A stretch of 23,044 nt of DNA from IMG/VR virus record IMGVR_UViG_2740892487_000010; one strand, given 5' to 3'. The notes beneath the pieces are model-generated. The model searched no databases and was not told where the DNA came from. It saw only the letters and a list, made by a program, of their open reading frames with translations. Positions 15,832 through 23,044 of the stretch are shown in pieces. The position numbers and the translations under genes were made by a program. This stretch comes from a virus (lineage: Duplodnaviria > Heunggongvirae > Uroviricota > Caudoviricetes). Positions within the stretch are counted from its first letter, which is position 1. Every line of letters begins with the position of its first letter.

Positions 15832-18247
15832 TTAATACAGGTTTCGCCACTTATCATCTTCCTGCAAACGCTGGTTCCGATAGAAGATACGCAGGCCTGC
15901 TCCTGACGGAATACTGCCGCCGCGAAGCAGTAAATCGACCTCTTTCTCGCTGCCATCAAATCCCCTGGACTTCAGTTCATACACGAGCTGCTGTCGCTGA
16001 TGATCTGTAATTCGCTGTTTGTAGTCTTTACGCCGTTTCGGTTTCACCAGGCGTAACCTTGCTGCCAGTTCCCGGCGCTCTTTTTTGCTCATACTGTGCA
16101 GGTAATCGTGCAACTCCTTGTCATCCATGCGGGTGATATCCGTTCTGGTATCTCCATCAGCTGATTTGTCTTTCCCTTGTTGGTACAAATTTTCAGCAAG
16201 GGGACAGTTATTGCCACGAGTCCAAGGGGCGCAAGCGCCCTGGTCGGCTGCCGCCTCCTGAACGTCAACGGCCTTACGAACCATTTTCCACTTCACTGCA
16301 TGAGTGCAGATCTTGCCCTCTGCAATGGGTGACCAGATGCCATAAATACGAATACCGTGATCGCCATAGGCGGTTGGCTCTTCGTTTATTTCATAAGCGG
16401 TTCTGATGAGGTGATATTTGCGGGGAACCAGTACGCCGCCCTGCTTCATGATGTAAGTGGCAAAACAACCAGCATCAGCAGCAGCCAGGATGGCATCAAG
16501 GCGCGGGTTATCCAGTACCGGCGCACCTGCTTTTTTGTCACCCTGTTGCCTTGCCGCCTGACCAGCCAGCAATCGCAGTTCACGGTAAGCCTGACGCCCC
16601 GGAATGCCAAAGAAGCGGAATTGCTGAACACGATGCAGAGACGCCCAGGCATTAACGTATTCAGCGTTATCACGCAGGGATTTACCCGTTTCCTTACTGA
16701 TCTCGCCAGCCAGACCACGCCCGTCAATATTCTTACTGATATATTTCGCAATGTAGCTTGTCGGCGTTCCTTTGCGCGGGTTTATCAGCTCAGACTTAAA
16801 GCGTGGCCCCGTGTTATTGCCCAGCTCCTCGCGGTCTTCACGGATGGCAAACTTACGCAACAATGCAGTAATGGCGCGGCGGTCTTTTTTTGCGCATGAA
16901 ACACAACAGGTGCCAGTGAACTGTGCCGTCATGATGCGGCTCAGCCACCCGCACGCCATACCAGCGCAACCCGGCTTTGTGCATAGCCTTACGAAATGCA
17001 GCAAACATGCCGACCAGATAATCGCTGCTTTGTCTTACTGTCGCGTTGGTCCAGGTCGGGTTTGGCCTGCCGTTATTTAGCGTGGAATGGAAACGTGACG
17101 GACAGGTGATGGTGTAGAAAACGGCGCAGTCACCACGCATTTCCGCGATAAGCTCCAGACCTTTAACACAGGCCATCATCTCGTTGCGGCGATGCGCCGG
17201 GTTGCTGCTGCTGGCGTTTACCACATCCTCCATGTCCAGCGTGTCGCCGTCTTCGTTCACCAGTTCATGAGAACGGAAAAACTCCAGCGACTTACGGCGC
17301 TGCTCACGTTTATGCATCACGGCTTCATAGCTGACATAGGGAGATGCTTTTTTGCTGACCAAGCAGACAGCACGCAACTGCTCTTCCCGCCATTCGCAAC
17401 GCATCTTCCATAATTTCCGATACCACCAGTCGGCACACAACATACGCGCCAGCGAACCCGGAATGAGTTCATAGGGCACGGGTTTACGGCGGTTTCTTTT
17501 CCGACGGAGTTGCTCAAACGCAGGCGGAATAACATCCAGACGCAGGGTTTCCGCTGCCACCTTTTCCCATGTTTTGCGGATTTCTTCTGGCTTAACGTCA
17601 TCGGTGGCATACAAATCACCACAAGCGGCATCAAGGCACATGCTCATATGCGCAGCGACAAGGGTAGACAGGCGCTTCACCTGATCCTGACTCATTTCAG
17701 GCAGGATAAGCAGGCCGTCCAGCCCTTCATGGCTTGCCATAAAACGAAAAGATGCAGATAGCTGGCTGTCGCGTACATGCTCCAGTCGTTCCAGACATGG
17801 CTTAATTGTCTCACGTAAATAGCGGGAATAAGCCTTTGGCCTGCACAGGCTGCTGAAGTATTCAATACGTTGCATCAGCGGCTTGCTGATATGGGAAGGC
17901 TGGGCGTTGACGTCCGCCAGAATGACCATATCCGGATTAAAACGCTGCTGCTCATGCGCCAGCTTTGCCCGGCTAATGAGCTTATCCTGCTCCATTTCGC
18001 GCTGGACAGGATCACGTGATTCATTAAAAAAATAACGCTCCCAGACCTGATCACTCAGTGCCTCGCGGCGCAGTTGTTCCTGCTCGTTATCGGCAGCGTA
18101 CAGAGTGATCAGGTTTGAAAGCGCAGAAACCGGCGCAACTTCCGCCGGGTCCAGATAAGGGTTAATGGCCTTTTTCGGGCTGTTCCATGAGAACGCTGCG
18201 GCAGCCTCGTTAAAGCCGCAGCAGTTGTTCATATCGGCATGACTCAT
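15832..18247 (-). CDS. A: Replication initiation protein (P2 gpA-like rolling-circle endonuclease), frame interrupted near 16885-16891
   Basis: Track ORFs 16853..18247 (464 aa) and 15832..17004 (390 aa) overlap; HUH-like GTVHWHLL motif; a 7-nt homopolymer where 6 would give ...[22 protein letters not shown]...; ATGA overlap with the dam stop. Confidence 0.8.
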
Positions 18248-19967: not shown

Positions 19968-20161
19968 TTGTTCCCCCGTTTTTTCGTAGATAGTTCTGCC
20001 AGCAATTCATCTTGTGAACGGCACGGATGCCAGCGTTTACCATCCTCCCCCATGATCCAGCCGTGACCGTAATGCATTGCCGGGCTTTGTTTAACCAGCA
20101 GCGATGCAAATGATGGTTCTTTCGTCAGCATAAGCACCTCACAGCAAACCAAATGAAGCAC
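19931..20161 (-). CDS. Hypothetical small early protein (position of 186 fil)
   Basis: 76-aa track ORF; true start probably the internal Met (MLTKEPSF...) at about 20131, since the upstream part overlaps cII. Confidence 0.35.
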   Translation of the reverse strand: MLHLVCCEVLMLTKEPSFASLLVKQSPAMHYGHGWIMGEDGKRWHPCRSQDELLAELSTKKRGNKWLLKALRRLFH

Positions 20162-20654
20162 CGAGGCCAGTCACGGTATCAACTGCACTCGCCATCGCAG
20201 GATTAGCCTGTAAACGGGCCTGCAATGAAACAGCCGCCAGCGCCATCAGTCGTGTTACAGAGTTAATGCTGCTGATAGCATCACGACGACCGGCACAGGT
20301 TTTTACATCGCCAGACACCGCACCTGCAGCAACACGCCCGATCTCTGCGGTTGCACTCATGACGTAATGTGGCAGTTTCTCTTTTGCCACCTCATTAATC
20401 GGTACACATGGCAGACAATGAATCTGTGCCAGAAAACCATCTACCAGCGTTGAATCTTCAGTCAGATCGGTAAGCAGCCAGATTTCTGGTGCGGTTAATA
20501 AATGAGGCTGAGCTGGGTTCAGCTTGTTCCGCAGAATCTGCACATTCATGCCTGCACGTTCTGCCAGTTGCACCAGATTGTGGCGCAGTGCAAATGCACG
20601 ACAGGCTTCATCAAAATGTGGATGTTTGGAAACTTGGTAATCAAACATGGTCAA
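20139..20654 (-). CDS. cII: CII-like transcriptional activator (phage 186 CII family)
   Basis: 171 aa; [20 protein letters not shown]...LRNKLNP...[25 protein letters not shown]...NPAM...GASFGL closely parallels the 186 CII sequence as recalled. Confidence 0.65.
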
Positions 20655-20680
20655 TGCCTCTGATGTATTTCAGAATCGAA

Positions 20681-20902
20681 CTAATTAAGGTTTAGATTGC
20701 ATTCTGAAAGCGCATCAACGGTCATTGCTGCTATGTTGATCATCACTTTTTCGCGTTTTTTATCTTTGCGCAGACGGTGACGGATAAGGCGTCCATCAGC
20801 CAACATGTCATTGATGGTATCGATGGATAGCCCTGTCAGCTCGCTATAGCGTTCAATAGTCACATGAGGCGTGGTAAGAGTGATTGAAATGTTAGGTCTC
20901 AT
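20681..20902 (-). CDS. apl: Apl/Cox-like small DNA-binding protein (excisionase and lytic-promoter regulator)
   Basis: 73 aa, first gene of the leftward early operon, divergent from cI; HTH-like [21 protein letters not shown]. Confidence 0.55.
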
Positions 20903-21027
20903 GATGCAACATTCCTCGTTTAATGATGATTAATCAGGACGAATACGGATCGTTTGTATTTTGTGAACACCATAAACATACGATCGCACGGTGAAATCGT
21001 CAAGATAAAAGTTCACTTGGAGTGACC
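20903..21027. promoter_or_regulatory. Divergent pR/pL switch region with candidate operators
   Basis: 125-bp AT-rich gap between divergent apl-like and cI; perfect palindrome TGATTAATCA at about 20926-20935 and inverted repeats GATCGTTTGTAT / ATACGATCG. Confidence 0.4.
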
Positions 21028-21597
21028 ATGAATTTGGAGAAAGGCGGACGAGGCGCCATAGAGCGCATGGTAGAAGCTTATGGATTCAAGACTCGACAGG
21101 CGTTGTGCGATCATTTAGGAATCTCTAAAAGTACACTCGCCACACGCTACATGCGTGACTCATTCCCAGCAGAATGGGTAATCCAGTGCGCCCTTGAAAC
21201 AGGCACCTCGCTTAATTGGCTCACAACCGGGCATGGTTCAAAGCAAACTTCAGGTAATACAAATACTATGGAAGTTGCTAAATATGTATTATCTGATGGG
21301 GCCTTGTGTGAAGACGGTTTTTATATTTTCGATAGAGAATTTCTACCGTCGGCATTCAAGAATCTTTTTGTAATCACAGATAATAATTCTGAATTTATTT
21401 GTGATAAGGAATTTGATGATATACGTGATGGTAAATGGGTAATAAGTATTGATGGCGAAATAACGATCCGTGACATTACTCGTTTACCCGGTGGAAGAAT
21501 CTTCGTCGAGGGTGGAAACAGAGCCTTTGAATGTAAGATAGAAGACATTGAAATAATTGGTAAAATTATAAGTTTAACAGTCAAGTATGTTAAATAG
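21028..21597 (+). CDS. cI: Immunity repressor, phage 186 CI-type
   Basis: Track ORF from GTG 21022; likely ATG at 21028 with GGAG ribosome-binding site; AYGFKTRQALCDHLGISKSTLATRYMR...CALETGTSLNWLTTGHG matches the 186 CI N-terminal domain pattern. Confidence 0.75.
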   Translation: MNLEKGGRGAIERMVEAYGFKTRQALCDHLGISKSTLATRYMRDSFPAEWVIQCALETGTSLNWLTTGHGSKQTSGNTNTMEVAKYVLSDGALCEDGFYIFDREFLPSAFKNLFVITDNNSEFICDKEFDDIRDGKWVISIDGEITIRDITRLPGGRIFVEGGNRAFECKIEDIEIIGKIISLTVKYVK

Positions 21598-21612
21598 TAC
21601 CGGGAGAAAATT

Positions 21613-21804
21613 ATGCTTGGTAAGGTATTTTTTGTGGTTTTGTCATGTTCTTTGTTATTAAACCCACTAGCTACCTATGCTAGAAATTATCCCTGCTCAG
21701 GGAAAAAGGGAGGTGTTTCTCACTGTACCTCTGATGGCAAATTCGTTTGCAATGATGGAACTATTAGTAAATCCAAAAAAATCTGTACTAAAAACTCACG
21801 ATAA
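21613..21804 (+). CDS. Small secreted cysteine-rich protein (candidate moron/lysogenic-conversion gene)
   Basis: 63 aa; signal peptide [23 protein letters not shown]; mature peptide of about 40 aa with 5 Cys; GGGAGA ribosome-binding site; sits between cI and int. Confidence 0.5.
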
Positions 21805-21992
21805 CTTTTGCTTTTATATCTGCGCCTAAAATAAAAATGAGCCACAGGTTAACCGCAAAAGTTACATGATCACATAGCAAAAAGAATAGCCTACTTCATT
21901 ATGGCTTCAGTGAGATGTATGGTCGCAGGATTTCATACATTGACACTGGTTATACATACAGTAAAAATGCTCTCTATTGGAGGGCATTTTTT

Positions 21993-23044
21993 ATGGCTGT
22001 ACGAAAACTCACCACAGGAAAATGGCTTTGCGAATGTTACCCCGCCGGACGTAGTGGGCGTCGTGTGCGTAAACAATTCGCCACCAAAGGCGAAGCACTG
22101 GCTTTTGAGCGTCACACGATGGAAGAAACCGAAGCAAAGCCCTGGCTAGGTGAATCAGTGGATCGTCGAACACTGAAAGACGTGGTTGAGCTATGGTTCA
22201 AACTACATGGTAAATCACTGACTGCTGGGCAGCATGTCTATGACAAATTGCTGCTGATGGTTGACGCTCTGGGCAATCCCCTTGCAACTGATCTAACCTC
22301 TAAAATGTTTGCCCACTATCGAGATAAACGCCTGACAGGTGAGATCTACTTCAGCGAGAAATGGAAGAAAGGAGCAAGCCCGGTCACCATTAACCTGGAG
22401 CAAAGCTATCTAAGTAGTGTTTTTAGCGAACTATCCCGCCTGGGCGAATGGTCGTATCCGAACCCACTGGAGAACATGCGAAAATTCACCATCGCAGAAA
22501 AAGAGATGGCATGGCTTACCCATGAGCAGATTGTTGAATTACTGGCTGATTGCAAACGTCAGGACCCAATTCTGGCACTGGTAGTTAAGATATGCTTAAG
22601 CACAGGCGCACGCTGGCGAGAAGCCGTAAATCTTACTCGTTCACAGGTGACCAAATACCGAATTACCTTTGTAAGAACGAAGGGGAAGAAAAACAGAAGC
22701 ATCCCTATCAGTAAAGAGCTTTACGAAGAGATCATGGCGCTTGATGGGTTCAATTTCTTCACAGACTGCTATTTTCAATTTTTATCCGTGATGGAAAAAC
22801 GTCTATCGTGCTCCCTCGCGGTCAACTCACACACGTTCTGCGCCATACGTTTGCGGCGCACTTCATGATGTCGGGTGGAAACATTCTGGCCTTACAAAAA
22901 ATTCTCGGACACCACGATATAAAAATGACTATGCGTTACGCACATCTGGCACCGGATCATCTGGAAACGGCGCTCCGTTTCAATCCTCTGGCAACGCTGC
23001 CAAGTGGCGACAAAGTGGCGGCAGCGGTTGGCATTACCCCGTAA
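21993..23044 (+). CDS. int: Tyrosine integrase (P2/186 Int family), frame interrupted near 22780-22800
   Basis: Track ORF 21915..22868 with likely start MAVRKLTTGKW at 21993 (GGAGGG ribosome-binding site), plus ORF 22808..23044 carrying LPRGQLTHVLRHTFAAHFMMSGGNILALQKILGHHDIKMTMRYAHLAP (catalytic R, H-x-x-R, Y). Adding one A to the A5 run at about 22795-22799 gives ...MEKTSIVLPRGQ... Stop is at the window end. Confidence 0.85.

Follow-up and report, generated by a model that had tools for sequence, protein, structure and literature searches.

What does a 63-codon open reading frame (ORF) contribute to a temperate phage that carries it between the gene of its immunity repressor and that of its integrase? 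The question is raised by a 23,044-nt stretch of DNA, referred to below as the window, which represents a 186-like (Peduoviridae) E. coli prophage; relatives with an identical lysogeny segment are integrated beside rcdA. An earlier note on this DNA had described the ORF as encoding a secreted cysteine-rich peptide, inserted between cI and int in the manner of a moron.

The gene between cI and int

The lysogeny region of the window contains the following features, given with coordinates, strand and the evidence on which each was assigned.

20139-20654 (minus): cII-like establishment regulator in the lytic-direction early operon; Pfam Phage_CP76, E 4e-42; 'phage regulatory CII family protein' in RefSeq in an identical relative
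20681-20902 (minus): apl/cox-like small excisionase-regulator gene, divergent from cI; 73-aa ORF in the position of 186 apl, weak match to TIGR01764, an excisionase model (E 0.037)
20975-21003 (minus): pR-like sigma-70 promoter TTGACG-17-TATGTT, pointing away from cI; consensus scan, located by the cI start in the place of pR of phage 186
21028-21597 (plus): cI immunity repressor of the 186 type; Phage_CI_repr E 2.8e-33, Phage_CI_C E 2.7e-27, WP_001047320.1 'phage repressor protein CI'
21602-21606 (plus): Shine-Dalgarno sequence GGGAG, 6 nt 5' of the ATG of the YdcA-family gene; sequence reading
21613-21804 (plus): YdcA-family gene (63 aa plus stop); NF007463, PF27300, PHROG 6000, WP_001513672.1, low core pN/pS
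21613-21681 (plus): predicted Sec signal peptide, residues 1-23, cleavage after T-Y-A; hydrophobic and lineage-divergent N-terminus, Ala at -1 kept, AlphaFold helix
21682-21801 (plus): mature basic peptide of 40 aa, R24-R63, with four conserved Cys; alignments, cross-lineage identity, AlphaFold pLDDT
21940-21968 (plus): promoter-like TTGACA-17-AAAAAT upstream of int, attributed to the int module rather than to the YdcA gene; scan
21963-21991 (plus): terminator-like hairpin with A-run and U-run, ending 1 nt before the ATG of int; folding, -17.5 kcal/mol, z -6.2
21993-23044 (plus): tyrosine integrase of the P2/186 type, frameshifted here; alignment to the intact WP_000290937.1

Both the sequence and the ORF list bear out the position and length that the earlier note had claimed for the frame, which extends on the plus strand over 63 codons from the ATG at 21613 to the TAA at 21802-21804. 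It begins 15 nt downstream of the TAG stop codon of cI (21595-21597), on the same strand, and the ribosome-binding site described as good in the note corresponds to the GGGAG 6 nt ahead of the ATG.

The encoded protein matched the NCBIfam model NF007463 (PRK10040.1-2) over residues 5-63 with 114.6 bits (E 1.3e-33), above the curated cut-off of 93 bits, and scored 68.5 bits against the K-12-type model NF007462, below the cut-off of 118. It carries a precomputed Pfam assignment to PF27300 'YdcA', matches the functionally unassigned PHROG 6000, and is identical to WP_001513672.1 in RefSeq, a 'YdcA family protein'; the exact sequence recurs on at least 1000 contigs. In a Pfam-A scan its sole match was a sub-threshold, GULLO2-like one, the YdcA model not being part of that copy of Pfam-A. 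A possible resemblance to DUF3761 was dropped, as neither the mature peptide nor a duplicate of it in circular permutation matched this family in Pfam scans at E values up to 10. Profile searching of 1.84 billion representatives yielded 452 family representatives at E <= 0.001, among them P0183, which we take to be YdcA of E. coli K-12.

The consensus of the mature domain in this family reads N-[TY]-P-C-S-G-x-K-G-G-[IV]-x-x-C-x(2,3)-G-x-F-x-C-x-D-G-x-x-S-x-S-K-x-x-C, and a regular-expression census detected the motif PCSGxKGG..C..FxCxDGxxSxSK..C in 201 of 227 family proteins. In the alignments the window protein carries this four-Cys motif directly after its predicted signal peptide. With the family as a whole (PF27300; NF007463/NF007462, PRK10040; K-12 YdcA; PHROG 6000) it shares a signal peptide that runs directly into the pattern PCSGxKGG[IV]xxC..FxCxDGxxSxSKxxC with its four Cys, whereas it differs from K-12-type YdcA in being prophage-borne, cI-linked and a member of the NF007463 rather than the NF007462 subfamily. 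These matches strongly support the window ORF as a genuine YdcA-family gene. The peptide is not an orphan; it belongs to a known family with a chromosomal paralogue in E. coli.

A signal peptide, as proposed in the earlier note, is predicted from Lys4, the hydrophobic residues 5-19, the T-Y-A ahead of residue 24 and a helix at residues 3-15 in the AlphaFold model of the window protein, together with the Ala at position -1, which is invariant or nearly so in the family alignments. From these we infer a Sec-type signal peptide that would be cleaved after Ala23. The note had counted five Cys in the mature peptide of about 40 aa; five are present in the 63-aa precursor (residues 12, 28, 38, 46 and 58), but Cys12 lies within the signal peptide and is not conserved, leaving four in the mature peptide, Cys28, Cys38, Cys46 and Cys58, all of them invariant or nearly so. 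The mature peptide, of an expected 4.3 kDa, is strongly basic with nine Lys or Arg residues against two Asp, and residues 31-50 of the AlphaFold model reach pLDDT values of 89-91. Family-wide, the net charge of the domain averages +3.9 and ranges from -1 to +9.

A lipoprotein signal was considered for V-L-S-C12, which resembles a lipobox, and was rejected. Cys12 is too near the N-terminus, sister alleles have F, I or V in front of it, and many family members lack it; it is the conserved Ala at -1 that precedes the mature N-terminus instead.

According to the database records of phages 186 and K139, the lysogenic operon runs from pL through cI to int, and in 186 it is given as pL-cI-int-orf69. 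The switch region of coliphage 186 has the same layout as the window, with cII and apl divergent from cI and int following. However, cI abuts int in 186 with no gene between them, whereas the window holds an extra 395 bp at this place (21598-21992) with the YdcA gene and the hairpin. The YdcA gene is therefore accessory. The terminator scan detected no terminator between cI and the YdcA gene, and the consensus scan no promoter-like site on the plus strand upstream of the YdcA ORF. That scan also missed a pL promoter in the window, and pL is placed here by analogy only; on this analogy, the YdcA gene would sit in a transcription unit expected to be active in the lysogen. Rfam returned no match within 20500-23044.

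The hairpin in front of int was not detected by the terminator scan and became visible on folding. It buries the Shine-Dalgarno sequence of int, GGAGGG, and is overlapped by the promoter-like TTGACA-17-AAAAAT. Phage vB_EcoM-813R9 keeps the hairpin with a different stem sequence, and similarity of the window to other int modules restarts at about 21934. Because it is common to phages with other cargo, the hairpin is best counted as part of the int module. If it terminates transcription, cI and the YdcA gene would form a maintenance transcript and int would be attenuated.

Thus the ORF does lie directly after the repressor gene in the lysogenic operon, as the earlier note had it (15 nt, same strand, no terminator between). 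The term moron fits in part: the gene is accessory, being missing from 186 and replaced in other phages, but it lacks the promoter and terminator of its own that characterize a classical moron, the hairpin belonging to the int module. It is an operon passenger and not a self-contained cassette.

Compared to WP_000290937.1, the integrase gene of the window lacks 1 nt in a run of six A residues (about 22790-22795) and is thereby frameshifted. Other window genes carry, or apparently carry, frameshifts too. From about 21200 to 21990 the GC content is 0.34-0.37, compared to 0.43-0.53 elsewhere, and this low-GC block also spans the 3' half of cI.

Distribution and conservation

The YdcA segment was present at a coverage of at least 80% in 627 of 5426 complete E. 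coli genomes (about 12%), including BL21 and BL21(DE3). The cI, YdcA and int genes of BL21 are 96% identical to those of the window, the YdcA gene there being HO397_RS04110 in CP053601, with WP_001321204.1 as its product. The earlier note had advised a search for similar peptides between cI and int of related prophages, and these were found across Enterobacterales and Haemophilus: the gene order cI, YdcA, int occurs in E. coli (with two alleles), Klebsiella, Enterobacter, Hafnia, Yersinia enterocolitica and Haemophilus. The spacing varies along this series. In an Enterobacter prophage the YdcA stop codon is 3 nt from the start of int; the second E. coli allele, which is 67% identical, is separated from int by a gene for a KAP NTPase; and in the Haemophilus phages HP2 and S2 the ATG of a 60-aa YdcA homologue overlaps the cI stop codon (ATGA). 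The HP2 homologue is unannotated in its GenBank record.

Compared to the BL21 allele, the YdcA gene of the window shows 11 synonymous and 2 non-synonymous differences. Both amino acid changes lie outside the conserved mature domain (residues 25-63), one at residue 20, within the signal peptide, and the other, R24K, at the predicted cleavage site. Among enterobacterial prophage alleles, pN/pS over the core of 27 codons is 0.00-0.05, with 30-100% of synonymous (pS 0.3-1.0) and 0-5% of non-synonymous sites differing; in comparisons with the copies from Haemophilus and Moraxella, pN/pS amounts to 0.11-0.18. Across the prophage lineages, the mature peptides share 71-95% identity. In the same lineages the identity is 44-98% for int, 17-53% for the YdcA signal peptide and 27-90% for cI, the cI values being 27-70% in all but one pair, the second E. 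coli allele versus Klebsiella, which reaches 90%. Since the synonymous sites are saturated, the high identity of the mature peptide reflects selection and not recent transfer. Extreme purifying selection on the mature peptide is thus strongly supported by these comparisons, in which it is the best-conserved product of the lysogeny module, beyond cI and int. Conservation exceeding that of cI and int in turn points to a target that is conserved and generic rather than a co-evolving, phage-specific protein.

With its saturated synonymous divergence, YdcA is an old, cI-linked companion from E. coli to Haemophilus. The notion of an ORF inserted between cI and int therefore needs qualification: it is absent from 186, but its age and tight linkage to cI do not fit a recent local insertion.

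That the ORF arose by chance in AT-rich DNA, or is a functionless remnant in decay, might be suspected from the local GC content of 0.34-0.37, the shortness of the ORF and the actual or apparent frameshifts in other genes of the window. This explanation can practically be dismissed. It is refuted by the NF007463 score above the curated cut-off, the 452 family representatives, the core pN/pS of 0.02-0.05 at saturated synonymous divergence and the intact ORF in the 627 E. coli genomes. Lack of conservation in close relatives, which the earlier note had named as grounds for giving up the ORF, is not the case, as it is conserved from E. coli to Haemophilus.

In other phages the slot between cI and int is filled differently. 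It contains PD-Lambda-1 in vB_EcoM-813R9 and a 349-aa gene of unknown function in 4LV2017, and in some E. coli strains PDC-S20, the KAP NTPase, lies downstream of YdcA. The PADLOC-DB 2.0 models did not match the YdcA ORF itself; its slot neighbours in relatives matched PD-Lambda-1 and PDC-S20. The integrase-primase interval of P2-like phages has been described in the literature as a minor defence hotspot. Defence cargo, whether validated or still a candidate, thus occupies the same variable slot as YdcA, but PD-Lambda-1 and PDC-S20 are large cytoplasmic NTPases whereas YdcA is a predicted periplasmic peptide of 40 aa. YdcA can co-occur with defence cargo, always staying beside cI.

The family is not confined to this slot. 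Members were also detected amid the tail genes of siphophages from Moraxella catarrhalis and Acinetobacter, among the few cargo genes of mobilizable plasmids of 3.9-5.4 kb in Acinetobacter and Psychrobacter, and as chromosomal, non-phage copies such as the paralogue ydcA of E. coli. In Moraxellaceae, phages, plasmids and one chromosome encode, after YdcA, partners that are membrane-anchored and homologous to one another. A universal partner gene was sought by comparing HP2 orf1(S), the Moraxellaceae membrane protein and the downstream genes in Acinetobacter, and was rejected, as only the Moraxellaceae partners are interrelated; the enterobacterial prophage copies of YdcA have no partner gene.

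Domain fusions and a probable structural relative

Among the 58 longer family members that were scanned, the only catalytic domains fused to YdcA are nucleases: Endonuclease_NS in three, SNase in one and PLDc_2 in one. These three nuclease superfamilies are mutually unrelated, and in the nuclease fusions the YdcA domain always directly follows the signal peptide. The YdcA-SNase fusion is encoded on a P2-like phage contig. Furthermore, YdcA is joined to a T6SS VasL domain in one family member, and others form tandem arrays of two to three YdcA domains with Ser/Lys-rich linkers.

This architecture bears on the idea that the lysogen releases YdcA as an extracellular antimicrobial peptide of the defensin or bacteriocin kind, or as an arbitrium-like signal. 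A small, cationic, Cys-stabilised product with a predicted signal peptide encoded in the lysogeny region would suit such a role. However, the YdcA domain is unlike a diffusible signal or toxin in being fused to periplasmic enzymes and arranged in tandem. Moreover, no gene for export, immunity, processing or reception adjoins it in the window or in relatives, and a Sec substrate of a Gram-negative cell is delivered to the periplasm, not to the medium. On account of the export route and the missing accompanying genes we consider antimicrobial and signalling roles very improbable.

The only probable relative in the PDB is Dis2 (Lpg0823; PDB 7MUC/7MUD) of Legionella's Dot/Icm T4SS (a type IV secretion system), which ranked as the top Foldseek hit (37-38% identity, E 0.5). 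A profile search gave E 8.2e-5 with the signal peptide and a marginal E 0.053 after its removal, and hhalign of Dis2 against YdcA lacking the signal peptide gave 84.8% probability over 21 columns. A fragment of a Dis2 orthologue is itself tagged PF27300, its second lobe reading CCLWRGGV...GLVLCNDGSISEEC. Dis2 has been described as a dispensable protein of two similar lobes with five disulfides, seated on DotC, DotD and DotK beneath the outer membrane, and as having no recognised homologues outside Legionellales. As a part of the outer-membrane cap it shares with YdcA the pattern C..GG[IV]..C..G..VCN[DN]G..S and the character, predicted in the case of YdcA, of a small disulfide-pinned periplasmic domain, but it has two lobes and five disulfides and belongs to a T4SS, whereas YdcA is a single domain with four Cys. 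We regard the relationship between YdcA and Dis2 as probable. The ORFs of the 23,044-nt window include no T4SS genes.

Dis2 also suggests what YdcA might do. Like a single Dis2 lobe, it might serve as a protein adaptor close to the outer membrane that docks on outer-membrane lipoproteins or on a trans-envelope machine, be it a secretin, a pilus, a secretion system or a phage receptor complex. The position of Dis2 as the best PDB neighbour (Foldseek, the 8.2e-5 profile match, hhalign and the PF27300-tagged fragment), its contacts to DotC, DotD and DotK beneath the outer membrane, the VasL fusion and the conserved membrane-anchored partner in Moraxellaceae speak for such an adaptor, which we nevertheless consider rather unlikely. 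Just as unlikely in our estimate is its consequence, namely that YdcA alters the activity of the machine and that exclusion or a changed cell surface follows as a secondary effect.

Candidate functions in the lysogen

Our preferred reading, to which we hold only tentatively, is that YdcA may be a lysogen-expressed periplasmic module that hinders the entry of foreign DNA and so protects the prophage. In such a mechanism, co-transcription with cI from pL would cause YdcA to be made continuously in the lysogen. The product would be exported to the periplasm, where its four Cys would form two disulfides, and in that compartment it would work as a small module that binds an anionic polymer or machinery near the outer membrane, such as the route of DNA entry. 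Nucleic acid would be the likeliest ligand, given that secreted nucleases of three unrelated superfamilies have this domain as their N-terminal module. Free-standing, as in the prophage, YdcA would then obstruct the entry of superinfecting phage and possibly of conjugative or transforming DNA, resulting in superinfection or entry exclusion.

The nuclease fusions, the carriage by mobile elements and the neighbouring defence cargo point this way, as does the precedent of Glo. In Vibrio phage K139 (Peduoviridae), a phage of the P2/HP1-like type, the pL lysogenic operon contains, between cI and int, the gene for Glo, a protein annotated as periplasmic and as acting in phage exclusion. This is the same slot, and the same compartment as predicted for YdcA; YdcA, too, lies between cI and int and carries a predicted signal peptide. 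Glo differs in its length of 137 aa and in being preceded by a further gene, orf2. Homology of the two proteins was rejected, as hhalign gave a probability of 1.9% with only the signal peptides aligning. Similarly, Ltp of Streptococcus thermophilus phage TP-J34 is a small exported superinfection-exclusion protein whose gene adjoins int in the lysogeny module, but it is a lipoprotein of 142 aa from a phage of a Gram-positive host, and its likeness to YdcA is one of position and logic only.

Several observations weigh against a role of YdcA in hindering DNA entry. The nuclease fusions fit an envelope-anchoring or metal-binding module equally well. Strong basicity is not universal, the family charge extending down to -1. 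The prophage already confers immunity to homo-immune phage through cI. Moreover, what has been reported for the chromosomal gene points to envelope or stress physiology: E. coli W lacking ydcA was severely impaired in its growth with 300 mM 3-hydroxypropionate (3-HP), and ydcA is reportedly induced at pH 5 under YdcI. Deletion of yieP overrode the 3-HP phenotype of the ydcA deletion, for which the authors gave no explanation. In the literature on DsbA substrates and on the function of YdcA and its family, these 3-HP and acid observations were the only ones found.

Alternatively, YdcA could be a lysogenic-conversion factor. The prophage copy would act like the chromosomal YdcA, or add to it, in tolerance to acid, organic acids or envelope stress, and would thereby serve the fitness of the lysogen instead of blocking phages. 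We rate this as possible, if doubtful. It draws on the sole experimental data for the family, the 3-HP growth of the deletion mutant and the induction at pH 5, and agrees with the existence of chromosomal, non-phage copies and with a mature peptide that is near-invariant across hosts, as would fit a conserved host target. On the other hand, the 3-HP phenotype is overridden by the yieP deletion, and a role in stress tolerance leaves unexplained why the domain is fused to three nuclease families and recurs as cargo of phages and 4-kb plasmids; in addition, the cargo beside YdcA in the same slot is anti-phage. The docking role modelled on Dis2 overlaps both with hindrance of DNA entry and with such a function in the envelope.

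Extended to the whole family, the preferred reading of YdcA as a barrier to foreign DNA leads to a speculative proposal, which we put forward with considerable reserve. YdcA mini-proteins might constitute a widespread and unrecognised class of single-gene periplasmic exclusion factors on mobile elements, built on a disulfide-stabilised module of 35-40 aa. Speculatively again, the module might bind DNA or the route of DNA entry below the outer membrane, by which 186-like phages, HP2, Moraxella and Acinetobacter phages and small plasmids would bar rival DNA. With the same reserve, it might also target periplasmic nucleases to their substrate, and have been duplicated and recruited as Dis2 of the Dot/Icm T4SS.

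The window protein and the YdcA family are already present in databases, and cargo between cI and int is a known phenomenon. In the literature we found no description of the systematic placement of YdcA directly after cI in prophages of Enterobacterales and Pasteurellaceae, of its conservation exceeding that of cI and int, or of its nuclease fusions and likely link to Dis2. Through this link a T4SS component now called species-specific would be placed within a family. If YdcA blocks the entry of DNA, it would bear on phage-therapy host range and on horizontal gene transfer, and would add a very small exclusion factor to those described. The gene is probably constitutive in the lysogen, its product is predicted to act in the envelope, and it is common in E. 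coli, the BL21 laboratory lineage included.

Cargo of the cI–int interval and the sequence preceding int

In related 186-like prophages the interval between cI and int carries cargo genes, which encode either the 558-aa PD-Lambda-1 or a KAP-NTPase recognised by the PADLOC model PDC-S20. Their positions, in the coordinates of each locus, are:

L004, 1791-3467: cargo of the cI–int interval
L011, 3255-4586: cargo of the cI–int interval
L014, 5198-6529: cargo of the cI–int interval

Since the PDC-S20-type KAP-NTPase is positioned downstream of the YdcA gene, defence cargo builds up in this interval while YdcA remains beside cI.

Two elements of the window lie close to the int start codon:

21940-21968: promoter-like sequence TTGACA-17-AAAAAT, overlapping the hairpin
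21963-21991: 13-bp hairpin bordered on one side by an A-run and on the other by a U-run, ending 1 nt short of the int ATG

The hairpin is retained in BL21, MS20659 and Klebsiella phage 4LV2017, and is replaced in phage vB_EcoM-813R9 by one that differs in stem sequence and is accompanied by a U-tract. It could constitute a terminator or attenuator, or else a translational operator for int. The Shine-Dalgarno sequence of int is sequestered by this structure.

Frameshift in int and a possible second one in the replication endonuclease gene

Compared to the intact RefSeq integrase WP_000290937.1, int of the window (21993-23044), whose stop codon ends at the last window position, carries a 1-nt deletion at 22790-22795 that shortens an A6 run to A5 and thereby breaks the gene into the ORFs 21915-22868 and 22808-23044. 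Either int is a pseudogene, in which case the prophage could not excise, or the deletion is a homopolymer sequencing error. On the minus strand, the gpA-homologous replication endonuclease (15832-18247), which comprises 804 aa in relatives, is represented by two overlapping ORFs, 16853-18247 and 15832-17004, suggesting a second frameshift in the window at approximately 16853-17004.

Fusions, extensions and neighbours of YdcA-family proteins

Several family members are joined to a nuclease domain of the SNase, Endonuclease_NS or PLD type, with the YdcA domain placed after the signal peptide (proteins P0118, P0169, P0200, P0213 and P0176; locus L013, 4001-4669). The YdcA-SNase fusion is encoded by a P2-like phage contig, with the tail gene D region on one side of it and the early genes on the other. 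Other longer members (P0056-P0062 and P0123), one of them from Herbaspirillum, share a C-terminal extension, C.C...C.GPRGG.YC...G.K.Y, for which the PBCV-specific basic adaptor domain (PF08789) gives a weak match; within the extension, the CTGPRGG stretch resembles the CSGKKGG motif.

Dis2 (Lpg0823) of Legionella, described in the literature as Legionellales-specific and devoid of structural relatives, appears to consist of two diverged lobes in tandem, each resembling YdcA (PF27300) (PDB 7MUC/7MUD, chain AN; proteins P0228 and P0229).

In Moraxellaceae, a second gene comes after that of the YdcA family; its product, homologous between the loci, is ~210-320 aa long and has a membrane anchor at the N-terminus:

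L005, 3438-4264: two-gene module
L021, 5001-5884: two-gene module
L036, 728-1697: two-gene module
L037, 1281-2440: two-gene module

Carriers are Moraxella catarrhalis phages, the M. bovoculi chromosome, and plasmids of Acinetobacter (3.9 kb) and Psychrobacter (5.4 kb).

Genes of the His-Xaa-Ser system (HxsD, a radical-SAM enzyme and an HxS-repeat protein) adjoin two unrelated YdcA-family loci (L028, 1757-2080; L035, 2622-4919), comprising a Herbaspirillum gene and a YdcA-Endonuclease_NS fusion. This adjacency may be coincidental or may reflect a real association.
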